In this document: positions 43,221-63,136 of the stretch, piece by piece
How the letters are laid out: the number at the start of each line of letters is the position of its first letter
Numbering within the stretch: the first letter of the stretch is position 1
Origin: Candidatus Poribacteria bacterium
Lineage (GTDB): Bacteria; Poribacteria; WGA-4E; GCA-2687025
Length of the DNA: 64,000 nt
Assembly: GCA_963665845.2 (NCBI GenBank)
Contig: OY762492.1
Span: 576,001-640,000, forward strand
Direction: 5' to 3'
Program-made: the position numbers and the translations under genes
The notes under the pieces: model-generated
The model's input: only the letters and a program-made list of their open reading frames with translations
What the model was told of the DNA's origin: nothing
Database searches by the model: none

Positions 43221-44750
43221 TTACGGGTTGACTTTCGACTTCGACTCAATATATTCCAGCAGCTGCGCCGGGGTTTCGCTTTGTTGGAGTATCTCACCCA
43301 CCATTGTGCGCGTTCCCCGCAGCGGATGCAACATCGGCACCATCTGCAAATCGCGTTCGTTCGTGTCAAAAATGAGCGAATTCCAGCTCGCCGCATGAAT
43401 CGCTTCCGGAAAACGCTTGAGACATGTTCCCCTAAAATAGGCGCGCGTGTCTAGCGGCGGGTTGCTGATTGCATGAATCGCCTCTTCTTGAGAAATGATG
43501 CGGTCGATGCGCCCCGCTTTCTGAAGGCGGTAAAAAATGCCCGCCCTCGGACGAATATCATGGTACTGCAGATCCAGCATGCGCATCCGATGATTCGTCC
43601 AGTCCAGGTCGTACCGATCCCGATAAGCGGTCAGCCAAGAGCGTTTGATAACCCAATCCAGCCGCCTGTCCAGCTGCGAAGCGCCGCTTTCCAGCATATC
43701 CAGCGTCTTTCCCCACTGGCGAACCACATCCGCGTTCATCTCATGGCGCGGTCCCGCGTTCCGCTGATCCGCCACATACTGCTCCGCCAGCCGATGATAC
43801 TGCCTTTGAATGTCGATGGCGGACAGGCGGCGCGTATGCTCCATCGCATAATCGCGTTCAAAATCCAGGTCTCTGGACGCGGCGCGCATCGCAGAGACAG
43901 GCTCCCGCATCTTGAACTGATCTCGAATCAGCCCATCCTCAATCATCTGAAGCGTCAGCGCGGCGGTTCCCGCTTTTAAGTACGTCGCAAATTCCGACAT
44001 GTTCGCGTCCCCGACAATCACATGGAACCGCCGGTACAGCTTCTCGTCCGCGTGCGGCTCGTCCCTTGTGTTGATAATCGGGCGGTCGACCATCGTGCTA
44101 AGCCCGACCTCCGTTTCGAAGAAGTCGGAGCGCTGCGCAATTTGAAAATCGGCAGGCTTGCCTCCGTTCTCGGCGCCGACCTTCCCCGCCCCGGCGAAGA
44201 TCTGCCGCGTTACAAGAAACGGCGTGAACCCGTCCACTAGCGACTGAAACGGCGTCTTTCGGTCGACAAGGTAGTTTTCATGGCACCCGTAGCTATGCCC
44301 TTTTCCGTCGGAGTTGTTTTTGTAAATGGCGAGTTCGCGCGGCTCCTCCAGCATCTGCTCGGCGAGCCTGCAGCTCATCTCCAAGATCAATTCGCCCGCC
44401 TTGTCGTAAATCACCAGGTCGCGCGGGTTGGAGCATTCAGGCGTGCAATACTCTGGATGCGCGTGGTCGACATAATACCTGCCGCCGTTGGTGAGTATGT
44501 CGTTCACAGCGGGGGCGGCTTCGTCGTCTCCGTCCGCGCCGATGTCCGGGTTGACGATCTCGCTCATGAACCCGCGCGCGTCCATGAGCGGGCTTTCCTC
44601 CTCGTAATTCCATGTGGCTGAACGCCGCGGATCGCGCCCTTTATAGCTGTTGACAACCATCGTGGACGCGGCGACAGGGTCAAAATCGGCGGCGCGGCGC
44701 ACCGCGATTCCGTACTCGGTCTCGATGCCCATCGCTTTGATGAGAGCCAT
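43221..44750 (-). CDS. dop: Pup deamidase/depupylase Dop
   Basis: GIETEYG, Dop-loop WNYEEESPLMDARGF, NGGRYYVDHAHPEY, NTRDEPHAD and RFHVIVGDAN; the Dop-loop distinguishes it from PafA. Confidence 0.9.
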   Translation of the reverse strand: MALIKAMGIETEYGIAVRRAADFDPVAASTMVVNSYKGRDPRRSATWNYEEESPLMDARGFMSEIVNPDIGADGDDEAAPAVNDILTNGGRYYVDHAHPEYCTPECSNPRDLVIYDKAGELILEMSCRLAEQMLEEPRELAIYKNNSDGKGHSYGCHENYLVDRKTPFQSLVDGFTPFLVTRQIFAGAGKVGAENGGKPADFQIAQRSDFFETEVGLSTMVDRPIINTRDEPHADEKLYRRFHVIVGDANMSEFATYLKAGTAALTLQMIEDGLIRDQFKMREPVSAMRAASRDLDFERDYAMEHTRRLSAIDIQRQYHRLAEQYVADQRNAGPRHEMNADVVRQWGKTLDMLESGASQLDRRLDWVIKRSWLTAYRDRYDLDWTNHRMRMLDLQYHDIRPRAGIFYRLQKAGRIDRIISQEEAIHAISNPPLDTRAYFRGTCLKRFPEAIHAASWNSLIFDTNERDLQMVPMLHPLRGTRTMVGEILQQSETPAQLLEYIESKSKVNP

Positions 44751-44764
44751 AAACGGTTCCGCCT

Positions 44765-46513
44765 TTACAGATACGGTCCGGAGGCTGCGACTCGAACGTT
44801 GCGTTTTTCTTGCTCGCTCTGGTCGTTCATCAGCCGCTTCACATTCACAATGCGTTCGCCTTTCCGTCCAGAGATGCTTGCCCATTCGTCCGGATTTTTG
44901 GTGTTCGGCAGGTCTTCGTTCTCTTTGAATTCTGCCTTGACAGCGGCGCGCATGTCTTCAAAGGATATTCCCTTCTCGCCGCCGTCCACATACCGCTTCA
45001 GGGCGATTTTCTTCGCTCTGGAGACGACGTTCATGACCATCGCGCCGCTGACGAAATCTTTAAAGTACAACGTCTCCTTCTCGCCGCGCGCGTAGGTCAG
45101 CTCTAAGAACTTGCTCTCGTCGTTTTCGGCGTACATCTGTTCCACCGCCTTGTCGATCAGCCGCTCCACAAGCGCGCCCGCCGTTTCCCCTGGGCGCAGA
45201 TCCGAGGAGGCAAGCGGCAGGTCCGGCGTTAGGTACACCTTAAAAATGTCGCGCGCCGCCTCCATGTCGGGTCGGTCGATTTTGATTTTCACATCCAGCC
45301 GCCCTGGGCGAAGGACAGCGGGATCCAGCAGGTCTTGCCTGTTGCTCGCGCCGATGACGATCACGTTCCGCAGCGTTTCCACGCCGTCGATTTCCGCTAA
45401 AAATTGCGGCACCAGCGTCGATTCCATATCGGATGAAATGCCCAGCCCGCGCGTCCTAAAGAGCGAGTCCATCTCGTCAAAAAAGATGACGACCGGCATG
45501 CCCTCCTGCGCTTTTTCGCGCGCCCGTTGGAACACTTCGCGTATTTTGCGCTCCGTCTCGCCGACATACTTATTCAGCAGCTCCGGCCCTTTGATGTTGA
45601 TAAAGTAGGCGCGGATGGAGCTGTCGTTGGAAAGTTCGCGCCCCTTTTGAGCGATGCTGTTGGCGACCGCTTTGGCGATGAGCGTCTTGCCGCACCCCGG
45701 CGGCCCGTAAAGCAATATCCCTTTCGGCGGCGCCAGGCTGAACTCTTTGAACTGGTCGGGGTAGAGATACGGCAGCTCCACCGCGTCCCGTATCTGCTCA
45801 ATCTGGCTGTCCAGCCCGCCGATGTCGTGATAGGAAACGTCCGGCGCTTCTTCTAAGAGCAGGTCTTCAGAATCGACCCGCGGCAGGCGATCTACGACAA
45901 GGCCGGTGGAGGAGTTGAGCAAGGCGCGGTCCCCGCTTTTGAGAGGAGCCGATTTGAGCGAGCCGGATATATGCGCGACGCGCTCCTCTCCGCCGCGCGC
46001 TTCCAGCAGCGCCCTGTCTCCGTCCAGCGTCTGCTTCACCCGAACGACTTCGCCGCTGCGTTCCGGCTCCGCCGCCGCAATCACATTGTAGGCGGAGTTC
46101 ACGATCACCTCCTGCCCCGTTTCCAGATGTTCAGCGTCCAGCGACGGGTCCGCGTTGACGCGCATCTTTTTGCCCATGAGGGAGATGTCGACCGTTCCGT
46201 CTTCGTTCCGTCCGAGGAAGGCGCCGTAGTTGTTCGGCGGCGCGCTCAACATATCCACCTTTTCGCGCAGCAGCTCAAGGCTCTCTTTGGTTTCGGACAG
46301 GTTGGAGGTCAGATCGCGGTTGCGCCTGCGCAGCTTGACAAGTTCCCGCTCCGCTTCGTAGAGCATATTTTCGGTATGTTCGGAGGCGGCGGAGCTTAGC
46401 TTTCGGCGCAGATCGTTGATCTCCGCCTGCATGATGTCGATCAAGCCCTCCAGCTCCTTGATCCGCTCAGCGGGCCTTCTTGGCAAGGCGCGTCTCGACC
46501 GTTCCTCACTCAT
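44765..46513 (-). CDS. arc: Proteasome-associated AAA ATPase ARC/Mpa
   Basis: N-terminal coiled coil, GPPGCGKT, IFFDE and RPGRLD; C-terminal GPYL (GQYL-like proteasome docking motif). Confidence 0.96.
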   Translation of the reverse strand: MSEERSRRALPRRPAERIKELEGLIDIMQAEINDLRRKLSSAASEHTENMLYEAERELVKLRRRNRDLTSNLSETKESLELLREKVDMLSAPPNNYGAFLGRNEDGTVDISLMGKKMRVNADPSLDAEHLETGQEVIVNSAYNVIAAAEPERSGEVVRVKQTLDGDRALLEARGGEERVAHISGSLKSAPLKSGDRALLNSSTGLVVDRLPRVDSEDLLLEEAPDVSYHDIGGLDSQIEQIRDAVELPYLYPDQFKEFSLAPPKGILLYGPPGCGKTLIAKAVANSIAQKGRELSNDSSIRAYFINIKGPELLNKYVGETERKIREVFQRAREKAQEGMPVVIFFDEMDSLFRTRGLGISSDMESTLVPQFLAEIDGVETLRNVIVIGASNRQDLLDPAVLRPGRLDVKIKIDRPDMEAARDIFKVYLTPDLPLASSDLRPGETAGALVERLIDKAVEQMYAENDESKFLELTYARGEKETLYFKDFVSGAMVMNVVSRAKKIALKRYVDGGEKGISFEDMRAAVKAEFKENEDLPNTKNPDEWASISGRKGERIVNVKRLMNDQSEQEKRNVRVAASGPYL

Positions 46514-46584
46514 GAATCTCTTCCTCCGCGGCGCTGTCTTAGGAACCATACCATATCATATCATACGCTTTCTTTCATGCGGCG

Positions 46585-49317: not shown

Positions 49318-50940
49318 ATGCCGTATCAGCCAAGCTACGACCGCGCGAACCGTTTTGGTCCAAGCCGTTCCTGCGTCGTCTCGAAGAACGGCGTTGTCGC
49401 GGCGAGTCAGCCGGCGGCGGCGCTGGCGGGGGTCGACATTCTGCGCGCCGGCGGAAACGCGGTCGATGCGTCGGTCGCGGCGGCGGCGGCGCTGTGCGTC
49501 TCGGAGCCGATGTCGACCGGCATCGGCGGCGACGTATTCGCGCTTATTTACGACGCGGAGACGAAGCGCGTTTACGGGCTGAACGCGAGCGGGCGCGCCC
49601 CTGAAGCGGCGACTTTAGAAGAGTATGAACGCCGTTTGGGAAAAGGCGGGGCGATCCCTGCGCGCGGCGCGCTTGCGGTCACGGTTCCAGGCGCGGCGGC
49701 GGGATGGGCGGACATCGCCGCCCGTTTTGGACGCATGCCGTTGAGCGATCTCATGAAGCCCGCCGTCCGTTTGGCTGAAGACGGGTTCGCCCTGACGCCG
49801 CAGATTGCAAACGCATGGCGCGGTTCTGAAGGCATGCTGCGTTCCGACGCCGATTCGTCGTCAACATGGCTTATGAACGGCAACGCGCCGCGCGTCGGGC
49901 AGATTTTCCTTAACCCAAACCTAGGACGAACGCTGCGCCTCTTCGGAGAAGGCGGAAGCGAAGCGTTTTACGGCGGAGAGATTGGCGCGGCTCTCGCGCA
50001 GGCGGCGCAGGAACGCGGCGGACTTCTCACAACGGACGACCTAGAGGCGCACACCTCCACCTGGACGGAGCCGATACAGACCGACTACCGCGGCGCGCAG
50101 GTACTGGAAATGCCGCCGAACGGACAGGGCATCGCCGCGCTGGAAACGCTCAACATACTCGCCTTAGAGGACGCGCCAGCGATGGGGTTCCAGTCGCCCG
50201 ACCTGCTCCATCTGCAGATTGAGGCGTTCAAGCTGGCGTTCCACGACAGGAATCGATACGTTACAGACCCTGAATTTGAAGAGATACCGGTTGAAGCGCT
50301 GCTCTCCGAATCGTACGCCCATTCGCAGCGGCGACGCATCTCGATGGAGCGGGCGAATCAAGAGCCGACGCATGGCGAGCCGCGCATGTCCGACACCGTT
50401 TATCTGTGCGCCGCCGACTCGGACGGCAACATGGTCTCCTTCATCAACAGCCTCTACATGGGCTGGGGAAGCGGCATCACGGCGGGGGAAACGGGCGTTC
50501 TGCTTCAAAACCGCGGCTCCAGCTTCTCCCTGGATCCGTCCCATGTGAACCGCATCGCGCCGAGAAAACGGACTCGGCATACGATCATCCCCGCCATGCT
50601 GATGGAAGACGGCAAGCCGCTCGCCGCGTTCGGCGTCATGGGCGGGGACATGCAGGCGCAGGGGCATGTCCAAGTCGTTTCGAACATGCTAGACTTCATG
50701 CTGAACCCGCAAGACGCCATCGACGCGCCGCGTTGGCGCTATAATGGACATGGCGCCGGCGTTTCGTTCGACCCGTGGACGCCGGCGGAGATCATAGAGG
50801 CGCTGGCGAAACGGGGGCATGCGGTCGCCGGGACAGGCGGCTTTTTCGGCGGCGCGCAGACGATTTATCGCGACAAAGAGAGCGGCGCGTATCATTCAGG
50901 TTCAGACCCGCGGCGCGACGGAGCCGCTGTCGGATATTGA
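49318..50940 (+). CDS. ggt: Gamma-glutamyltransferase family protein
   Basis: GGNAVDA, PPNGQG, SD|TVY catalytic Thr, LQNRG, GVMGG and DPRRDG. Confidence 0.93.
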   Translation: MPYQPSYDRANRFGPSRSCVVSKNGVVAASQPAAALAGVDILRAGGNAVDASVAAAAALCVSEPMSTGIGGDVFALIYDAETKRVYGLNASGRAPEAATLEEYERRLGKGGAIPARGALAVTVPGAAAGWADIAARFGRMPLSDLMKPAVRLAEDGFALTPQIANAWRGSEGMLRSDADSSSTWLMNGNAPRVGQIFLNPNLGRTLRLFGEGGSEAFYGGEIGAALAQAAQERGGLLTTDDLEAHTSTWTEPIQTDYRGAQVLEMPPNGQGIAALETLNILALEDAPAMGFQSPDLLHLQIEAFKLAFHDRNRYVTDPEFEEIPVEALLSESYAHSQRRRISMERANQEPTHGEPRMSDTVYLCAADSDGNMVSFINSLYMGWGSGITAGETGVLLQNRGSSFSLDPSHVNRIAPRKRTRHTIIPAMLMEDGKPLAAFGVMGGDMQAQGHVQVVSNMLDFMLNPQDAIDAPRWRYNGHGAGVSFDPWTPAEIIEALAKRGHAVAGTGGFFGGAQTIYRDKESGAYHSGSDPRRDGAAVGY

Positions 50941-50953
50941 CAAGGAGCTTTAC

Positions 50954-52195
50954 ATGAGCAGTCTCGATGTGTTGACGCATACATTTTCAAACGGTTTGAC
51001 ATTGGCGGCGGAGATTCGCCCCGCGATACGCGCGGCGGCTTTCAACCTGCTCATGCCGACCGGCTTGGCGGGCGACCCGTCAGGAAAAGAGGGCTTGTCG
51101 AATGTGCTGTCGGATCTGTGTTACCGCGGCGCGGGCGATTTGGATTCCCGCGCGCTGTCAGACGCCCTGGACGCGATCGGAATGCAGCGCTCCGGCGGGG
51201 CGAGCAGAATTGCCTTTTCATTCGGCGGCGCCGTCATGTCTGACCATCTAGAGCGCGCCTTGGATCTGACAGCGGACATCGTCCTGCGCCCCGCGCTGGA
51301 CCCGAAAGAGCTGGAGCCTGTTCGGTCGCTGGCGCTTCAAGACCTCGCCTCCCTGGAAGATGAGCCGCGGCGCAACGTGTTCATTCACCTGAACCGCGCC
51401 TATTTCACCAACGAGTACGGGCTGTCCTCTCTTGGGACGGAGGAATCGCTGCAGTCGCTCACGGCTGAAGATATGGCGGAGGCGCAGAAAAGCCGCTTCA
51501 AGCCGAACGGCGCCATTATGAGCGTTGCGGGGCGGATCGACTGGGAGCGGCTGAAGGATGCGGTCGAGGCGCGGTTCGGCGACTGGGACGGGTCGGCGCC
51601 CGCGCTTCCTCAACCAGAAAGGCGCGCCGACGGCTGTTACGTCCACATTGAGCAGGACACGCAGCAGCAGCATATCGGCGCCGCCTACGCCGCCGCGCCG
51701 CTAGAGCATCCCGACATCTACGTCTCGCGGATGGCGCTGGGCGTCTTGTCGGGAGGGATGGGCGCGCGTCTCTTCACCGAGGTGCGCGAAAAGCGCGGGC
51801 TTGCGTATGCGGTCTATGCGGGCGCCGCCTCTCTGAAAGGAATGGGATATGTGCAGGCGTATGCAGGCACCACCCCCGAACGCGCCCAAGAAACGCTCGA
51901 CACGCTCATTGCGGAGCTGAAACGGATGGCTGAAGGCGTCACCGAAGAGGAACTGGAACGGGCGCGAACAGGCCTCTTGTCAAGCCTCGTCATGGGCGGC
52001 GAGTCGACCGGCGCCAGGGCGAACGCGATCGCAACCGATCTCTACTACCTCGGCAGAGTCCGCAGCCTTGAGGAGATACGGGAGCAAATTGAGGCGGTCG
52101 ATTCCGCGTCCATTGCGGCGCATCTGAAGGAGTTCCCGCCTGAAAACTTTACGGTCGCCGCTCTCGGTCCGCGCCGGCTTGAGATGCCTGAATAA
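50954..52195 (+). CDS. M16B peptidase, non-catalytic subunit
   Basis: M16 fold with RLFTEVREKRGLAY but no HxxEH. Confidence 0.88.
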   Translation: MSSLDVLTHTFSNGLTLAAEIRPAIRAAAFNLLMPTGLAGDPSGKEGLSNVLSDLCYRGAGDLDSRALSDALDAIGMQRSGGASRIAFSFGGAVMSDHLERALDLTADIVLRPALDPKELEPVRSLALQDLASLEDEPRRNVFIHLNRAYFTNEYGLSSLGTEESLQSLTAEDMAEAQKSRFKPNGAIMSVAGRIDWERLKDAVEARFGDWDGSAPALPQPERRADGCYVHIEQDTQQQHIGAAYAAAPLEHPDIYVSRMALGVLSGGMGARLFTEVREKRGLAYAVYAGAASLKGMGYVQAYAGTTPERAQETLDTLIAELKRMAEGVTEEELERARTGLLSSLVMGGESTGARANAIATDLYYLGRVRSLEEIREQIEAVDSASIAAHLKEFPPENFTVAALGPRRLEMPE

Positions 52196-52212
52196 CATTG
52201 AAAGGAAACGCG

Positions 52213-53448
52213 ATGGAGTTCATGCATACGAAACTGGACAACGGCCTCGTCGTCATCGGCGAGCGAAACGAAGCGGCGCAATCGATGGCGTGCGGCTATT
52301 TCGTCAAGACAGGCTCGCGCGACGAGACCCCCGAAGTGAGCGGCGTCAGCCACTTTCTTGAACATATGGCCTTGTGCAAAGGCAGCGATCAGCGCTCCGG
52401 GGATGACATCAACCGCGAATTTGACGAAATCGGCGCGTATCATAACGCTTTCACCTCAACCGAAGACACGGTCTATTATGCGCAGGTTCTGTCGGAATAC
52501 CAACCGCGCCTTATCCACCTGTTGACCGACATGATGCGGCCCGCCCTTCGGAACGACGATTATGAGATGGAAAAGAAGGTGATCCTGGAGGAGATCGCCA
52601 TGTACAAGGACGACCCTGAAGCCGTCGCATACTGGGCGGCGCGGGAGCTGTTTACGAACGGCCACCCGTCCGGCAACAGCATCCTCGGCACAACCGAGTC
52701 GATCTCCGCCCTGAAACGTGATCAGATGAAGCGGTATTTTGAGCGGCGTTATTCGCCGGGGAATCTCATCGCCGCCTTGACCGGCGCGTTCGATTGGGAC
52801 GCCGCCATTCGTCAGATTGAGGAGTTGACGCGCGATTGGGTCCCGTTCGATGTTGGACGCGAAACGCCGGAGCTTAAATGCGCTAATGAAACAATGGTTG
52901 TCCAAAACAATCAGTTCATGCGCGAGCATCTGGTCTGGATCTGGCAAGGTTTGAGCTTTCAGGATGAACGCCGGCGCGCGGCGGACCTCCTGACGGCTGT
53001 TATAGGCGACGACGTCGGCTCGCGCCTCTACTGGGGATTGGTCTCTCCTGGCGCCGCTAATTCTGCCATTATGTCGCATTGCGAGCAGGATCAGGTCGGA
53101 ATGTTCATCGCCGAAGTTTCCTGCGATCCAGAGCGCGCGGGCGAAGTTGTCCGAAAGGTTCAAAACATTCTGAAAGACGCGGTCGAGAACGGCGTCACTG
53201 AAGATGAAATCGAACGCGCAAAGCAGAAAGCCGCCTCGTTTATCGTTCTTGACTCCGAGACGCCGATGGACAGGCTGTTTTGGTTGGGCATGGCATGGGC
53301 TTACCTCGGCGAATATATCGATACGGACGAAGAGGTGAACCGCCGCCTGTCCGTAACAAAAGAGGATATTGACGCGCTCCTGGCAGACGATCCGTTTGCA
53401 AAGGGAACGCTGCTCGCCCTCGGACCGCTGGAAACGCTGGACATATAA
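52213..53448 (+). CDS. M16B zinc peptidase, catalytic subunit (copy 1)
   Basis: [13 protein letters not shown] and EKKVILEEI. Confidence 0.93.
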   Translation: MEFMHTKLDNGLVVIGERNEAAQSMACGYFVKTGSRDETPEVSGVSHFLEHMALCKGSDQRSGDDINREFDEIGAYHNAFTSTEDTVYYAQVLSEYQPRLIHLLTDMMRPALRNDDYEMEKKVILEEIAMYKDDPEAVAYWAARELFTNGHPSGNSILGTTESISALKRDQMKRYFERRYSPGNLIAALTGAFDWDAAIRQIEELTRDWVPFDVGRETPELKCANETMVVQNNQFMREHLVWIWQGLSFQDERRRAADLLTAVIGDDVGSRLYWGLVSPGAANSAIMSHCEQDQVGMFIAEVSCDPERAGEVVRKVQNILKDAVENGVTEDEIERAKQKAASFIVLDSETPMDRLFWLGMAWAYLGEYIDTDEEVNRRLSVTKEDIDALLADDPFAKGTLLALGPLETLDI

Positions 53449-53471
53449 AACGCATCAAAGGAGAAAACGCG

Positions 53472-54701
53472 ATGGAGTTCATGCATACGACACTGGACAA
53501 CGGCCTCGTCGTCATCGGCGAACGGAACGAAGCGGCGCAATCGATGGCGTGCGGCTATTTCGTCAAGACAGGCTCGCGCGACGAAACGCCCGAAGTGAGC
53601 GGCGTCAGCCACTTTCTTGAACATATGATGTTCAAAGGCGGCGACCGCCGCTCCGCGGACGACATCAACCGCGAATTTGACGAACTCGGCGCGCAGTACA
53701 ACGCCTTCACCTCGTTTGAAAACACGGTCTATTTTGGACGGGTTCTGTCGGAATACCAGCCCCGCCTCATCGACCTGTTGACCGACATGATGCGCCCCGC
53801 CCTTCGAGACGACGATTTTGACATGGAAAAGAAGGTGATCTTGGAGGAGATCGCCATGTACAAGGACAACCCTGCGGCGGTTCTTTACTACATGGCGCGG
53901 GAAATCTTTGCGAACGGCCACCCGTCCGGCAACAGCATTCTCGGCACCACCGAGTCGATTGCCGCCCTGGAACGGGATCAGATGATGACCTATTTTGAGC
54001 GGCGGTATTCGCCGGGGAATCTCATCGCCGCGTTGACCGGCGCGTTTGACTGGGACGCCGCCGTTCGTCAGATTGAAGAGTCGACGCGCGACTGGATCCC
54101 GTTCGATGTCGGGCGGGAGGCGCCGGACCTGAATCACGCCGTCAAGACGCAGGTTGTGAAAAACGATCAGTTCACGCAACAGCATCTGATCTGGTTCTGG
54201 CCTGGTTTGAGCCTTCAGGATGAACGGCGGCGCGCTGCGGGCGTGTTGACGGCCGCTCTAGGGTCCAGCGTCGGTTCGCGGCTTTACTGGGGTTTAGTCG
54301 ATCCTGGCATCGCCCATTCAGCGAGCTTGTCCCTCTCTGCAGAGGATCGGTTCGGCGTCTACCTCGCATCCGCCTCATGCGATCCAAGCCGCGCGGGCGA
54401 GGTTGTGCAGAAGGTTCAGGAGATTCTGCGGGAAGCGACTCAGGACGGCGTTTCCGTTGAAGAGATCGAGCGCGCCAAACAAAAAATCGCTTCGGGAATG
54501 GTGTTGGGTTGGGAAACGCCGATGGGCAGGCTCGTGCCGGTCGGCATGGATTGGGCGTACCGCGGCGAATATATCGACGCGGACGAAGCGGTGAACAGAG
54601 TCCTGTCCGTAACAAAAGAGGATGTGGACGCGCTGCTGGCGGACGATCCGTTTGCGAATGGAACGCTGGTCGCTCTCGGTCCGCTGGAGACGCTGGATTG
54701 A
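53472..54701 (+). CDS. M16B zinc peptidase, catalytic subunit (copy 2, tandem paralogue)
   Basis: [13 protein letters not shown]; N-terminal half nearly identical to copy 1. Confidence 0.93.
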   Translation: MEFMHTTLDNGLVVIGERNEAAQSMACGYFVKTGSRDETPEVSGVSHFLEHMMFKGGDRRSADDINREFDELGAQYNAFTSFENTVYFGRVLSEYQPRLIDLLTDMMRPALRDDDFDMEKKVILEEIAMYKDNPAAVLYYMAREIFANGHPSGNSILGTTESIAALERDQMMTYFERRYSPGNLIAALTGAFDWDAAVRQIEESTRDWIPFDVGREAPDLNHAVKTQVVKNDQFTQQHLIWFWPGLSLQDERRRAAGVLTAALGSSVGSRLYWGLVDPGIAHSASLSLSAEDRFGVYLASASCDPSRAGEVVQKVQEILREATQDGVSVEEIERAKQKIASGMVLGWETPMGRLVPVGMDWAYRGEYIDADEAVNRVLSVTKEDVDALLADDPFANGTLVALGPLETLD

Positions 54702-54869
54702 CTGACCTCATGCTGAAAGTTGGGACAGCTGAACGACCAAAGTCTTTATTCATGGGAAAGAGGCGTCGCCAACCAGGTCGTACTCCCGCGTAAGCGGGAA
54801 TCCAGAGGCGCCGCAGACGACATCTGCGTTCGCCCGCCGGCATGTCCCAACTTAAGACGTAAAGGTCAG
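54702..54869. mobile_element. 168-bp MITE, copy 2
   Basis: TIRs CTGACCTCATGCTGAAAGTTGGGACA / TGTCCCAACTTAAGACGTAAAGGTCAG; 8-bp direct repeat TGGATTGA at 54694-54701 and 54870-54877. Confidence 0.9.
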
Positions 54870-54907
54870 TGGATTGAAAGGGGCATGAAAACGAAAGAGA
54901 CGCTTGC

Positions 54908-56500
54908 ATGAAACAGAACTTTCCCGACAATGCGCTCTACGAGATGGACAACCTTGAAGTCCTGCGCGGCATGAACAGCGAGACGGTCGACCTGATCGCG
55001 ACCGACCCGCCTTTCAACACAAAGCGCAACCGCGCAGGCTCGGCGGGCTTCTACGTCGACAACTGGAAATGGGGCGACACCGGCATTCTGCCCGACCAGT
55101 GGAAATGGAACGAAGTGCATCCGAAATGGCTTGAGGAAATCAAAGACGATCATCCTGCGCTTTTCAAAGCGATCGACGCCGCAAAGGACTGCCAGGGCGA
55201 CGATACTGCCGCCTTCCTCTGCTTTTTGAGCGTCCGGTTGCTGGAAATGCATCGCGTCCTGAAGCCGACCGGCTCCATCTACCTGCACTGCGACGCAACC
55301 GCAAGCCATTACATTAAAATGTGCATGGACGCCATTTGGGGCAAGGAAAACTTTCGGAATGAAATTCTGTGGAAAAGAACCGCGCGGGGGTTCAAGGGAT
55401 CGCAGTACGGTCCGCGCAAATACAATACGAATACCGACAACGTTTTATTTTATTCACAAACAAAAAACGCTTTTTTTAATATGGAACCTGTGCTTGAGCC
55501 GTACGATTCGAAATATCTTGAAAAGACGTTCAGGCTGACCGACAGCAAAGGACCGTATTATCTTGATGTTGCATACAACCGATTAGGCGCGAGTCCAAGA
55601 CCAAATTTATGCTACGCTTACAAGGGATTTTTTCCGCCGCATCCATCAGGCTGGAAGGTCGGTCTTCCGCGCATGAAGGAGTTGGATGCGCAAGGCGAGT
55701 TGGTTGTTCAAAAGAACAGGCTATATCGAAAAATACGGCCTAAAGCAGGGCGTATACGAAACAACCTATGGGTAGACATAGACGCTCCAAAAGGCGACGA
55801 GCGCACAGGTTCGCCCGATCAAAAACCGATCGCTCTTTATGAGCGCATCATCAAGGCGTCATCTAACGAAGGCGATCTAGTTCTGGATCCGTTCTGCGGC
55901 TGCGCGACGACCATCATCGCGGCGAACAATCTGAACAGGCGATGGGTTGGAATCGACAGGCGAGTCGATGCGCGGTTCCATATCCTGACAAGGCTGATGG
56001 GCATTCCCAAAAAGGAACGCGATCGGCTCAAAAAATTTGCGACGGACGGCTCATGGCTCCAAAAGCAGATGGACGATTTCGACGTCTACTACCGCGCCGA
56101 AGCTCCAGAACGCACGGACGACAGCGAAACGAAAGCGCCGAAACTGAAAGGCGTTTATGTCACCGAAAATCCGCACACGCATAAGGAAATGAAGGAGGCG
56201 CTGGTCAGCGAGTTCGGCTGCCGCTGCTGGGGATGCAATTACGAGCCGCCTGACGAACGTTACCTGCATATTGACCACATCATCCCGAAAAGCGGCGGCG
56301 GAACGAATCACATCTCAAACCGCGCCATGCTTTGCCAGCCCTGTAACTCCAAGAAGGGAAACCGCCTGACGCTGATAGAGCTCCGCAAGCGCAACGACAA
56401 GGACGGGCATACGCGAGAAGGCGATCCTGTCGACCTGAAATACGCGCTCTCCTGGTCGCTTGATGAGCTGCTGCGTAAATTGCGGGGGCAATCTGCATGA
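54908..56500 (+). CDS. Amino (N6A/N4C) DNA methyltransferase, beta-class motif order, fused to a C-terminal HNH endonuclease
   Basis: DLIATDPPF (motif IV), QKPIAL...VLDPFCGCATT (motifs X/I), then CRCWGC...HIDHIIPKSGGGTNHISN..LCQPCNSKKG (HNH). Confidence 0.9.
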   Translation: MKQNFPDNALYEMDNLEVLRGMNSETVDLIATDPPFNTKRNRAGSAGFYVDNWKWGDTGILPDQWKWNEVHPKWLEEIKDDHPALFKAIDAAKDCQGDDTAAFLCFLSVRLLEMHRVLKPTGSIYLHCDATASHYIKMCMDAIWGKENFRNEILWKRTARGFKGSQYGPRKYNTNTDNVLFYSQTKNAFFNMEPVLEPYDSKYLEKTFRLTDSKGPYYLDVAYNRLGASPRPNLCYAYKGFFPPHPSGWKVGLPRMKELDAQGELVVQKNRLYRKIRPKAGRIRNNLWVDIDAPKGDERTGSPDQKPIALYERIIKASSNEGDLVLDPFCGCATTIIAANNLNRRWVGIDRRVDARFHILTRLMGIPKKERDRLKKFATDGSWLQKQMDDFDVYYRAEAPERTDDSETKAPKLKGVYVTENPHTHKEMKEALVSEFGCRCWGCNYEPPDERYLHIDHIIPKSGGGTNHISNRAMLCQPCNSKKGNRLTLIELRKRNDKDGHTREGDPVDLKYALSWSLDELLRKLRGQSA

Positions 56501-56598
56501 AACACGAAAAAGAGGTTTACGTTTACGCCGAAACGGACCATTACGTAAGCGAAGGTTGGACGATTTTCAGTCAGGTTCAAACAGAAAGGCAACGCACA

Positions 56599-57669
56599 AT
56601 GAAAATCCAACGCAAATCTCTCATCGCTCTCTTCGCGGCAACGATCAGCGCATTCGGGCTCGTGGCGCCGCCGTCCGCCGCATGCGACAACCCATACGAT
56701 GTCCAGGTGGTCTATATCGTCCCGCATGGGGAGACTGCCGACGCAGCAGGCGTCCTGGCGGATGTCCTTACGGCGCAAACGCTGATGCGAAAGGAGATGG
56801 CGCGCCACGGTTTCGGCGACGACCGAACCTTCAAAATCGCGGAATTTACCACTTTCAAAGGCGACGCCACATCAAAATGGACAACCGAGGCGTTTGAAAC
56901 GGCATCGGTCAATGACCTCTGGGAAGACTGGCTCAAATACAACCTTCCGCCATACCGATCTGGCGTCGAACGGCTGCACCGCGTCTATCTCTTCATTGTA
57001 GAGGGCGCGACCAAGATAACGCCCGTCGCATGCGGATTGGCAAGCATGTTCGTCGGCGACGGATGGGCCGCCTCCCCGTTTATTGGCGGATGGGCGTTCG
57101 TCGGCGCCGACACTCCCTGCGACGACCGAAGCGCGCTTCTCGCCCATGAAATCGGACATACCTTCGGGCTGAAACACAACCTAGATCCCGCAACGACCAT
57201 GCACAAAGGTAGCGAGCATGTCGTCCAACGCCAATTCAGCGAAGCGGAATGCGAATGGCTTGACGGATCGCGCTACTTTGACGATGACCACAGCGACGCC
57301 AACGACCTGCCCGGTATACAGCTGCTCTCCGCGCAAGCGGCACAGCTGGCAGGCGAGCCGTCCGTCGAGATCGCCTTCCGTGTGACCTCCCATGTCGGCG
57401 TCCGCATGTTCCAGCTGTATCGACAATCCGATGGCGCGGCGGTCGCAATGGAAACTATGAACACATGGCAAACAACCATCCAGGTCAACATCCAAAGAAC
57501 CCTGCTCGCCGGCGAAACAGGACTCGGCGCCATGGTCATGGACGCAAAAGGAGCTGTCGGAAGAGACAGCTACCTGTTCGGCATTCCGCCGATACGGCCG
57601 CCCGCGCAGAACAACGCCATCGCCCGCGTTGGAACAGAAGCGGTCATGTGGGCTAACCTGAAACGATAG
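56599..57669 (+). CDS. Secreted zinc metalloprotease (metzincin-like) with a C-terminal WANLK tail
   Basis: Signal peptide after RBS AGAAAGG; HEIGHTFGLKH plus a downstream Met; ends AVMWANLKR. Confidence 0.82.
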   Translation: MKIQRKSLIALFAATISAFGLVAPPSAACDNPYDVQVVYIVPHGETADAAGVLADVLTAQTLMRKEMARHGFGDDRTFKIAEFTTFKGDATSKWTTEAFETASVNDLWEDWLKYNLPPYRSGVERLHRVYLFIVEGATKITPVACGLASMFVGDGWAASPFIGGWAFVGADTPCDDRSALLAHEIGHTFGLKHNLDPATTMHKGSEHVVQRQFSEAECEWLDGSRYFDDDHSDANDLPGIQLLSAQAAQLAGEPSVEIAFRVTSHVGVRMFQLYRQSDGAAVAMETMNTWQTTIQVNIQRTLLAGETGLGAMVMDAKGAVGRDSYLFGIPPIRPPAQNNAIARVGTEAVMWANLKR

Positions 57670-57707
57670 GATGACACGCATCAACACGCATCAAAGGAGA
57701 AAACGCA

Positions 57708-57962
57708 ATGGAGTTCATGCATACGAAACTGGACAACGGCCTCGTCATCGTCGGTGAACGGAACGAGGCGGCGCAATCGATGGCGTGCGGCTATTTCGTC
57801 AAGACAGGCTCGCGCGACGAAACGCCCGAAGTGAGCGGCGTCAGCCATTTTCTTGAACATATGATGTTCAAAGGCAGCGACCGCCGCTCCGCGGACGACA
57901 TCAAACGCAACCTTGACGAACTCGGCGCGCAGTACAACGCCTTCACGTCGTTTGAAACCTAA
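57708..57962 (+). pseudogene. Truncated third copy of the M16 catalytic subunit (first 84 aa)
   Basis: Near-identical to 53472-53722, including the upstream ACGCATCAAAGGAGAAAACGC; stops after NAFTSFET. Confidence 0.88.
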
Positions 57963-61612: not shown

Positions 61613-63136
61613 ATGAACATCGCCAAAAAAACGCTCGAGTCGACCGTTCTGGTCGTCGCGGAGGACGCAGAGGGGGAAATCATCGGCATCGGCAGCGGCT
61701 TCTTTGTACGAGAAGGTCTTATCGCCACAAACCAGCATGTGATTGACGAAGCGGCGATCATCGGCGTTCGGATGGTGAACCAAGAGCATTTTCACCCCAT
61801 CGATAGCGTCGCTGCGCAGGACGCGGAACAGGACTTGGCGTTGCTGATCGTCTCGTCTTTGAACGCGCCGGCGCTGCCCCTCGGCGACAGCGATGCGCTC
61901 CAGATCGGAGAGCCGATCTATGCGGTCGGCAACCCGATAGGGTTCCTAGAAGGAACGTTCTCAGACGGACTGGTGAGCGGCATCCGCGGCGCCCTGCCCG
62001 ACAGCAAACTGATACAGATGACAGCTCCCATCTCGGAAGGGAGCAGCGGCGGACCTGTACTGAACGCGAAGGGAGAAGTTGTCGGCGTCTCTACGGCGGA
62101 GATTGCGCTAGGACAAAACCTGAACTTTGCCGTACCTTCGAACGCGCTGAAAAAGCTGATTGGATATGTCGGCCGACCGAATCTTGTTGTTCCGACGCCC
62201 CGCCCCCTGCCGCCCTCTTTGCCTGAGCGGTTTGAAGACTATACGCAGTGGGGGCTGCCGCAAGGCGCCAAAGCCCGCCTCGGCAAAGGATCAATTATCG
62301 AGCTTACATATTCGCCAGATGGTAAAACGATTGCAGTTGCCGGCAGTATTGGCATTTGGATCTACGACGCCCAGACCGGCAGAGAGCTCTCTTTGATACG
62401 TACTACGAGCAACGTCTTTTCCGTGGCGTATTCTCCGGACGGTCGGACGATTGCCAGCGGAAGCATAGACAACACGATTCGAATCTGGAACGCGCAAATA
62501 GGAGGCACTCTCCGAACGCTTCCAGGGCATACGAACAGCGTCTTTTCCGCGGCGTATTCTCCGGACGGTCGGACGATTGCCAGCGGAAGCGTAGACAACA
62601 CGATTCGAATCTGGAACGCGCAAACAGGGGACACTCTCCGAACGCTTATAGGACATACTGACTGGGTCCGTTCTGTGGCGTATTCTCCGGACGGCAGAAC
62701 GCTCGCCAGCGGCAGCGATGACAACACGATTCGAATCTGGAACGCGCAAACAGGGGACACTCTCCGAACGCTTCCAGCGCATATTGACAGGGTCTATTCC
62801 GCGGCATATTCGCCGGATGGCCGGACCATCGCCAGTGGCAGCGCGGACGGCACGATTCGAATCTGGAACGCGCAAACAGGCGCGCATCTCCGAATGCTTA
62901 CAGGGCATACGGACAGCGTCCTTTCCGCGGCGTATTCGCCGGACGGTTGGACCATCGCCAGTGGCAGCGCGGACAGCACGATTCGAATCTGGAACGCGCA
63001 AACAGGCGCGCTTCTCAGAACGCGCGAAGGGCATACAAGCTACGTCTTTTCCGTGGCGTATTCGCCGGACGGCCGGACTATCGCCAGCGGAAGCGACGAC
63101 GGCACCATCCTCCTTTGGGACGTCTCAAATCAATAA
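61613..63136 (+). CDS. Trypsin-like (S1C/HtrA-type) serine protease fused to a WD40 propeller
   Basis: GSGF, TNQHV, DLALL and GSSGGP triad motifs; Pro linker; YTQWGLPQGAKARLGKG; about 7 WD repeats. Confidence 0.92.
   Translation: MNIAKKTLESTVLVVAEDAEGEIIGIGSGFFVREGLIATNQHVIDEAAIIGVRMVNQEHFHPIDSVAAQDAEQDLALLIVSSLNAPALPLGDSDALQIGEPIYAVGNPIGFLEGTFSDGLVSGIRGALPDSKLIQMTAPISEGSSGGPVLNAKGEVVGVSTAEIALGQNLNFAVPSNALKKLIGYVGRPNLVVPTPRPLPPSLPERFEDYTQWGLPQGAKARLGKGSIIELTYSPDGKTIAVAGSIGIWIYDAQTGRELSLIRTTSNVFSVAYSPDGRTIASGSIDNTIRIWNAQIGGTLRTLPGHTNSVFSAAYSPDGRTIASGSVDNTIRIWNAQTGDTLRTLIGHTDWVRSVAYSPDGRTLASGSDDNTIRIWNAQTGDTLRTLPAHIDRVYSAAYSPDGRTIASGSADGTIRIWNAQTGAHLRMLTGHTDSVLSAAYSPDGWTIASGSADSTIRIWNAQTGALLRTREGHTSYVFSVAYSPDGRTIASGSDDGTILLWDVSNQ

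Follow-up and report, generated by a model that had tools for sequence, protein, structure and literature searches.

What kind of enzyme results when a DNA methyltransferase and an HNH nuclease share one polypeptide chain, and why would a bacterium keep many of them? The question is raised by a gene on the plus strand at 54908-56500 of a 64-kb window from a Candidatus Poribacteria genome (G000:C1:576001-640000). Coordinates without a contig name are numbered along the whole of that window. The genome, G000, comprises 3.98 Mb in three contigs, and we compared it with G001, a second genome of the same genus; the paralogs of the fusion gene are referred to as the family. We consider it fairly probable that the encoded protein, P0001, is a single-chain restriction-modification (R-M) enzyme resembling Type IIC, and that enzymes of this kind change specificity by exchanging a target-recognition domain (TRD).

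A methyltransferase and an HNH nuclease on one chain

The open reading frame (ORF) encodes 530 residues and is free of internal stops. Pfam N6_N4_Mtase matches residues 27-351 (E 1e-38), and HNH_5 and HNH match residues 440-488 (E 4e-12 and 2e-11, respectively), all above the curated cut-offs. The motifs stand in the beta-class order. An N-terminal methyltransferase block (residues 1-184, 54908-55459) carries motif IV, DPPF, at residue 33 (55004-55015) and is followed by a variable region of 101 residues (185-285, 55460-55762), which is predicted to be the TRD from the position of this domain in beta-class enzymes (PMC4490356). Motifs X and I-III occupy residues 286-356 (55763-55975), with the S-adenosylmethionine (SAM)-binding motif I, DPFCGC, at residue 327 (55886-55903). 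A linker (residues 357-421, 55976-56170), modeled as helices and then a low-confidence stretch, leads to a zinc-binding HNH domain with a C-terminal helix (56174-56497), the core of which is residues 440-488 (56225-56371). All of these parts are read from the plus strand. The HNH core contains C440xxC443, D456-H457, N471, C476xxC479, and N480, and its catalytic and zinc residues are invariant across an alignment of 126 sequences. In HNH nucleases, the residues equivalent to H457, N471, and N480 are catalytic, not merely structural.

The AlphaFold2 model built from the 126-row alignment had a mean predicted local distance difference test (pLDDT) score of 86.9 and a predicted template modeling (pTM) score of 0.81, and it supersedes a model from a shallower alignment (20 rows, pLDDT 66). 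Foldseek placed EcoP15I Mod first among the structural matches (E 1.5e-17), followed by M.MboIIA, M.RsrI, and M.BceJIV, all of which are beta-class methyltransferases. The HNH part taken in isolation was nearest by sequence to Cas9-type HNH domains, while no NCBIfam model reached its cut-off against P0001, those for IscB and Cas9 scoring far under it. P0001 is thus a beta-class N6/N4 methyltransferase joined by a linker to an HNH domain with complete catalytic and zinc residues. The initial annotation had described just this layout from the letters alone, with DPPF ahead of the TRD and DPFCG, then a linker and an intact zinc-binding HNH domain, and Pfam, motifs, alignment, and model all bear it out.

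The fusion is not an artifact of assembly, because an intact HNH pattern lies on the same chain in 116 of the 120 top homologs and because overlapping contigs from reads of run X1 tile 55250-56600 with 0 differences, although X1 may be the source sample and hence not independent. The four homologs missing the HNH pattern comprise one 406-residue protein without the domain and three that the pattern did not catch.

Paralogs and exchange of predicted target-recognition domains

The initial annotation considered the enzyme to be stand-alone. This is accurate at the locus, which has no adjacent restriction gene, but not in the genome, where profiles built from homologs identified 40 further family genes. 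Counting genes with both methyltransferase blocks as near-complete, G000 holds 41, of which 23 end in HNH, 15 end in an Mrr-like nuclease, and three are truncated after the methyltransferase. Four additional matches are partial, one of them 89% identical to the first 125 residues of P0001. The family proteins are small (about 400-570 residues). DPPF is kept in all 41 copies, and an unbroken HNH motif is found in 22 of the 23 HNH-type genes of G000 and nine of 10 in G001. The QxK motif of the Mrr-type nuclease is retained in 13 of 15 copies, with the lysine lost in two; Pfam Mrr_cat was run against two of the 15 and scored above its cut-off in one. Since the same type of methyltransferase also ends in the unrelated nuclease Mrr_cat (15 of 41 copies), the C-terminal position appears to be a slot for nucleases. 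When methyltransferase cores from G000 and G001 were placed in a tree (62 rows, TRD excluded), a single change with support of 100/100 separated the HNH type from the Mrr type, and on this basis we rejected the idea that the HNH domain is a homing endonuclease or a recent insertion.

Expansion of the family varied widely among genomes. At E 1e-30, a threshold at which the number of matches is not an exact copy number, G000 had 45 matches, G001 had 23, G025 had 21, and G027 had eight, while the other 27 of the 31 genomes searched had 0-5 and 14 of the 31 had none. By these counts, the expansion is patchy and lineage-specific.

The segment between the two methyltransferase blocks, to which we assign DNA reading by its position and by analogy, was far more variable than its surroundings. 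TRDs ranged from 37 to 129 residues among the G000 paralogs, and the 41 TRDs fell into 39 clusters at 60% identity, compared with 15 clusters at 75% identity for the N-terminal blocks. Where two paralogs had C-termini more than 85% identical, their TRDs were just 17%-51% identical, in 30 out of 30 pairs. P0001 provides an example at the DNA level: its gene and C1:3296064-3297479 are 82%-95% identical over 54971-55330 and 85%-95% identical over 55811-56530, and unrelated between. The same paralog shares about 55 nt past the P0001 stop codon (56498-56553), which suggests that the copied unit reaches slightly beyond the gene. The nearest match of the P0001 TRD within the genome is in an Mrr-type copy, C1:2912042-2913625 (45% identity, score 214 versus 27 +/- 5 for 1000 shuffles). 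Among P0001 and its 120 homologs, the 117 proteins with both boundary motifs formed 32 clusters of variable regions.

Comparison with G001 points to movement of TRDs between loci. We examined 22 G001 regions covering its matches and found a complete gene in 21. All 21 had an N-terminal block at least 70% identical to that of some G000 copy, whereas their TRDs matched G000 at 85% or more in five cases, at 57%-72% in three, and at 46% or less in 13. In windows of 30 residues, the G001 gene L029 is 87%-97% identical to C1:3761498 over the N-terminal 150 residues and 93%-97% identical just after the TRD, yet its TRD is 97% identical to that of another, distant G000 gene, C1:3444280. On these alignments, L029 is a clean TRD crossover between unrelated loci. 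L024, which lies at the site of a three-gene G000 array, has conserved blocks that are 80%-100% identical and a different TRD. This pattern resembles that of Type III mod genes of Helicobacter pylori, in which the TRD moves between nonorthologous loci through recombination in flanking motifs (PMC3467074).

Base composition is consistent with a foreign source for these segments. At four-fold degenerate sites, the GC fraction was 0.62 in TRDs (725/1173) versus 0.79 (5339/6789) in the remainder of the genes, and the genome median was also 0.79 (926 long ORFs). TRD values were below those of the gene remainder in 36 of 41 copies, which are related and not independent, and the P0001 TRD had 19 of 45. 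By codon GC, therefore, the TRDs look foreign.

Whole genes also appear to turn over quickly. For 12 of the 21 G001 copies, there was no G000 family gene within 2 kb of the mapped flanks. At one site that holds an HNH-type gene in G000, G001 carries the Mrr-type gene L035. Tandem arrays in G000 include four HNH-type genes at C1:1185728-1191150 and three Mrr-type genes at C1:2909149-2913625, with every TRD different; at the site matching the latter, G001 has a single gene. We also observed that the left and right flanks of L017 and L029 map beside two different G000 family loci, which suggests genome rearrangements at or near family paralogs.

Two other sources of variation were considered. Phase variation was rejected, as simple-sequence repeats (at least seven C/G, at least eight A/T, or at least five short repeats) occurred in or just upstream of none of the 41 family genes. 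A candidate case of gene conversion in run X4, where 15 of 15 linker differences were the letters of a paralog, was not used: the tract is flanked by identical runs of 50 and 33 nt, and an assembler bubble fits equally well.

The variety of TRDs bears on a guard function for these proteins, in which the methyltransferase would be a sensor or decoy and the HNH domain would be released for nonspecific DNA degradation when the methyltransferase is blocked (by a phage DNA mimic or SAM depletion) or when foreign modified DNA is met, in a manner like Type IV. Such a role would fit the listing of the modification-dependent nuclease McrA (6GHC, E 3e-4) in the fold search with the first, 20-row model, and also the Mrr-family nuclease of the sister chassis, a family named for a modification-dependent enzyme. 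We nonetheless regard it as quite improbable, because a decoy would need no TRD variety, the methyltransferase motifs are intact throughout, and a Pfam scan of P0001 found no SRA, EVE, winged-helix, or other modification-sensing domain.

Selection on the nuclease and a proposed mechanism

We compared rates of nonsynonymous and synonymous change (dN/dS) by Nei-Gojobori counts in HNH-type genes of G000 and G001 arranged as 13 disjoint pairs, excluding pairs with less than 60% C-terminal identity. Pooled dN/dS was 0.16 for the HNH core, compared with 0.19 and 0.22 for the two methyltransferase blocks, and it was 0.05 for the HNH domain of P0001 against its closest paralog. Judged by these counts, the HNH domain is under purifying selection. 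The sole HNH-dead copy in G000, C1:1834404-1835693, has DR in place of DH; its G001 counterpart, L019:4085-5425, is also dead, with a TRD that is 92% identical. This copy looks like a possible domestication as an orphan methyltransferase.

A dead copy with a conserved TRD, kept in two genomes, is what might be seen if the enzymes mainly wrote a strain-specific methylome, for self-marking that protects from the nucleases of other cells or for gene regulation, and the HNH domain were a weak nuclease or an auxiliary DNA-binding clamp. The two Mrr-type copies without the QxK lysine and the three copies truncated after the methyltransferase point the same way, and there is a precedent for large repertoires of this kind in the sponge symbiont Cenarchaeum symbiosum, reported to have 22 Type II methyltransferase genes of which 17 are orphan (PMC10609329). 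A mainly epigenetic role is nevertheless unlikely in our judgment, given that H457, N471, and N480 are invariant in all 126 aligned sequences, that dN/dS is as low in HNH as in the methyltransferase, and that two unrelated nuclease folds occupy the same slot.

Under the R-M reading, a single predicted TRD would guide both the methylation of host sites and the cleavage of incoming DNA wherever its sites are unmethylated. Methyltransferase motifs indicate the base that is modified, the DPPF type corresponding to N6-methyladenine, and the mark is probably of that kind. P0001 could act as a dimer that divides the work as EcoP15I Mod does, with site reading falling to the TRD of one subunit and methylation to its partner (PMC4490356). 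The HNH domain, on its linker of about 65 residues, would cleave close to sites that lack the mark, and breaking both strands would take a pair of HNH domains. Because both activities would share one TRD, recombination in the conserved DNA flanking it would switch both specificities at once without self-killing. A one-step change of specificity without self-killing would explain the expansion of the family, and the same logic of drift under shared specificity has been stated for Type IIG enzymes (PMC4081073). The role in restriction-modification and defense that the initial annotation had proposed is backed, indirectly, by apparent purifying selection on the HNH domain, TRD exchange, and fast locus turnover.

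More tentatively, the family could represent an undescribed subclass of single-chain R-M enzymes, in which a beta-class methyltransferase is followed by a C-terminal HNH or Mrr nuclease. It might then serve as a recombining immune repertoire of about 38 enzymes with nearly as many specificities per chromosome, its TRD cassettes imported from a common pool on which sponge-associated bacteria of many phyla draw.

Several points weigh against a restriction function. A lone HNH domain cuts one strand, and purifying selection indicates that the HNH fold matters without proving double-strand breaks. Retention of a dead HNH copy in both G000 and G001 means that members can persist without a nuclease. 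About 38 active restriction specificities per cell would be extreme; up to 20 Type IIG systems in Borrelia are described as the extreme case (PMC4081073). PADLOC returned only methyltransferase models, including MTase_III models, among the best 25 of its 78 matches. Family genes in G000 lie dispersed between housekeeping genes, and no neighbors of the kind that mark defense islands recur beside them. Literature searches found no methylation, cleavage, or phage-defense data for any family member. Finally, the strong avoidance of certain sites in G000 is not attributable to the family. We note the avoidance as an observation in its own right: observed occurrence relative to expectation was 0.15 for GGCC, 0.44 for ACGT, 0.28 for CTCAG, 0.05 for GAGCCC, 0.06 for GGGCAC, 0.12 for GAGCAC, 0.14 for ACGCGT, and 0.15 for CCCGAG, in a genome with just one C5 methyltransferase gene.

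Locus, distribution, and related systems

The P0001 gene lies within a 3.25-kb stretch (54698-57948) that is absent from the syntenic site in G001, where an M16 peptidase gene joins a dehydratase gene directly. In the window, these bordering genes are at 53472-54701 and from 57996, respectively. The stretch contains a miniature inverted-repeat transposable element (MITE), the fusion gene, a gene for a zincin-like protease, and a partial copy of the M16 gene. This last element (57683-57957, plus strand, 275 nt) is a second copy, at 95% identity, of the 5' end of the M16 gene (53447-53721); at a short word common to both, it passes into sequence similar to the 3' end of the M16 gene, and it is internally deleted. 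It is likely the remnant of a long target duplication, although both gain in G000 and loss in G001 by recombination between M16 copies would fit. Insertion with long target duplication is a known mode for R-M systems (PMC2853133), defined by an insert under 20 kb, an empty site in a relative, a direct repeat over 30 bp, and no other mobile element. The empty site and duplicated-target remnant seen here may reflect that mode, with the reservation that the 275-nt, 95% identical repeat is internally deleted and the direction of change ambiguous.

The MITE-like repeat (54702-54869, 168 bp) has terminal inverted repeats, CTGACCT...AGGTCAG, and lies between the two copies of an 8-bp direct repeat, TGGATTGA (54694-54701 and 54870-54877), read as its target duplication. 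It forms a strong hairpin (z -5.3) and has 136 near-full copies and 797 total matches in G000, with many copies also in G001. We rejected a link between this repeat and the enzyme, as near-full copies lie upstream of two of 41 family genes versus 85 of 1690 long ORFs, and we regard it as a separate insertion that is incidental to the enzyme. The repeat contains a shorter palindromic one (54784-54810) that occurs hundreds of times, often in tandem arrays, and longer stretches with MITE ends exist, such as one of 1707 bp at C1:3073388 that overlaps an IS1595 transposase match.

The zincin-like metalloprotease gene (56599-57669, plus strand) encodes the motif HEIGHTFGLKH, with weak Pfam matches under the cut-off. 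Its longest ORF begins at 56497, but a start at 56599 is more likely. The case for the protease as a dedicated partner is weak: its sole other homolog in the search lies 2.8 kb from another family gene and is not a recurring neighbor. With M16 peptidases, this protease, and an IlvD/Edd-family dehydratase as neighbors, the initial annotation was right that no separate restriction gene is nearby. A promoter scan gave two matches versus a shuffle mean of 1.8, no excess, and in metatranscriptome X10 short contigs from a related strain covered some stretches of the gene, among them the beginning of the TRD and the HNH; DNA carry-over being possible, these were not counted as expression.

Other genes in the window are recorded here as side observations. 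Three tandem M16 peptidase genes occupy 50819-54701, two of them 84% identical over 300 nt of DNA, with the internally deleted copy at 57683-57957 as a fourth; G001 also has the three genes. At 43221-46549, inspection of the translations by eye suggested genes like those of a Pup-proteasome system, namely for a Dop/PafA-like protein and for an ATPase of ARC/Mpa type. At 61613-63136 a trypsin-like protease is fused to WD40 repeats, and G001 has many relatives of it.

Beyond these two genomes, a protein search gave at least 8000 candidates, the 120 best of which nearly all had both Pfam domains, and a scan of species genomes gave at least 573 related stretches. The two named homologs among those 120 come from Ca. 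Poribacteria. Among the best 79 of the stretches from the scan, which may overlap the 31 genomes searched above, the three blocks lie in one ORF in 76 and the HNH pattern is intact in 73. They are titled Chloroflexota, Acidobacteriota, Alpha- and Gammaproteobacteria, Poribacteria, Bacteroidota, Gemmatimonadota, Cyanobacteria, Spirochaetia, Planctomycetes, and others, and 78 of the 79 are titled metagenome-assembled. Clusters with this pair of domains are also present in the ESM Atlas, where they bear only automatic names. No full-length match was found among 325 phage records at 80% cover, nor among 708 plasmid records, where the one match at that cover ends before the HNH core. A two-piece plasmid match that we examined proved to be a fusion of a beta-class methyltransferase with Mrr_cat on a conjugative plasmid of a cultured Bradyrhizobium (L128:2956-4674), which offers a tractable source for the sister chassis. 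Around the 41 G000 copies and the 79 outside loci, no partner gene recurred other than IS1595 transposases and further family copies, which speaks for the one-protein reading; an IS1595 transposase lay within the 4-kb flanks of 18 of the 79.

The IS1595 association, the rapid turnover of sites between G000 and G001, and the duplicated-target remnant at the P0001 locus raise the prospect of a methyltransferase with a nickase, in which HNH would nick one strand near the site and the family would spread as a selfish or recombination-promoting element, through nick-stimulated gene conversion, TRD exchange, and insertion with long target duplication, and not act as a restriction barrier. The single HNH domain per chain would suit this as well. 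We consider it improbable: 39 different TRDs within a single genome would be of no evident use to an element that is purely selfish, and a beta-class dimer would, by analogy, bring two HNH domains together. IS1595 also seems remote from P0001, as the nearest transposase is 481 kb away, which led us to reject carriage of the gene by this element. Our repeat search found no long inverted repeats around the gene, and it did not specifically seek IS1595 ends without a transposase.

Returning to the R-M reading, the family can be set beside several known systems. P0001 has methyltransferase and endonuclease domains in one polypeptide (by its ORF and both Pfam matches), which is the sequence definition of Type IIC. 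Type IIC and IIG enzymes have an N-terminal PD-D/ExK nuclease and a gamma-class methyltransferase, BtgZI being the named exception in the available part of a review (PMC4081073). Like P0001, BtgZI places the methyltransferase first, and its C-terminal PD-..QxK nuclease is of the type found in the 15 Mrr-type paralogs; it differs in being alpha class with a PD-(D/E)xK variant, whereas P0001 is beta class with an internal TRD and HNH. The available part of that review names no Type IIC enzyme of beta class with an internal TRD, nor one with HNH. Type IIG and IIL enzymes (MmeI, BpuSI, Eco57I) are alike in using one specificity module, as predicted here, for both activities, in its wide diversification, and, in Borrelia, in many copies per genome. 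By contrast, none of their gamma class, N-terminal PD-(D/E)xK nuclease, and C-terminal TRD holds for P0001, which agrees with the initial annotation that its architecture is atypical of Type IIG. In the portion seen of a 2025 classification (bioRxiv 10.1101/2023.12.13.571470), REBASE Type IIG enzymes are all class A, and beta corresponds to class B.

The closest structural relatives are Type III Mod subunits (EcoP15I Mod 4ZCF, Mbo45V, H. pylori mod), which share the TRD position between motifs IV-VIII and X-I-III. P0001 differs in having a small fused HNH nuclease and no ATPase domain, and no adjacent gene for Res, a superfamily 2 (SF2) helicase-nuclease, was found at its locus, nor any recurring partner of that kind at the 41 or 79 loci, a result that does not cover unlinked Res genes. 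M.MboIIA, M.RsrI, M.BceJIV, and CcrM share the core fold of P0001, with TM-scores reaching 0.81 over the target, and match it in sequence with E as low as 5e-15, but they lack a nuclease domain, and the P0001 paralogs have TRDs of varied length. The zinc-binding CxxC...DH...N...CxxCN core is shared with Cas9/IscB, McrA, and small phage HNH nicking enzymes, while P0001 lacks the RuvC, bridge helix, and modification-sensor domain of Cas9/IscB and McrA. Type IV HNH nucleases (McrA, TagI, VcaM4I) have a sensor domain (SRA, EVE, winged helix) and no methyltransferase, so P0001 is the opposite on both counts. In the ShiLan HNH-containing insertion of phage methylases, HNH and methylase also occur in one gene (PMC11855218), but there the HNH is described as an insertion element inside the methylase, whereas in P0001 it comes after a whole methyltransferase and keeps to a single chassis lineage. 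No beta-class methyltransferase-HNH fusion appears in the available portions of PMC12707154, PMC5714182, PMC10609329, PMC2993543, and PMC3424549, and full-text literature searches, whose scope excluded most subscription journals, REBASE, and supplements, found no description of this layout. Overall, the family appears to work like Type IIC/IIG without being Type IIG by architecture, and to share the Type III Mod chassis without an adjacent Res.

As far as sequence comparisons can tell, the fusion is real, intact, and selected, and the family is an unusually large, recombining repertoire in G000. Fused R-M enzymes in reviews are gamma class with one alpha-class exception, and placing HNH at the C-terminus of a beta-class chassis would add another solution. 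Such an enzyme poses a mechanistic puzzle: if reading and methylation fall to different subunits of a dimer, how is the decision to cut made? With small proteins and natural TRD cassettes between conserved crossover blocks, the family would lend itself readily to testing and could yield many new specificities. Sponge symbionts are enriched in R-M functions at the COG level (PMC5649159). Because library matches name its members merely as methyltransferases, the family may form a large unrecognized part of that enrichment.

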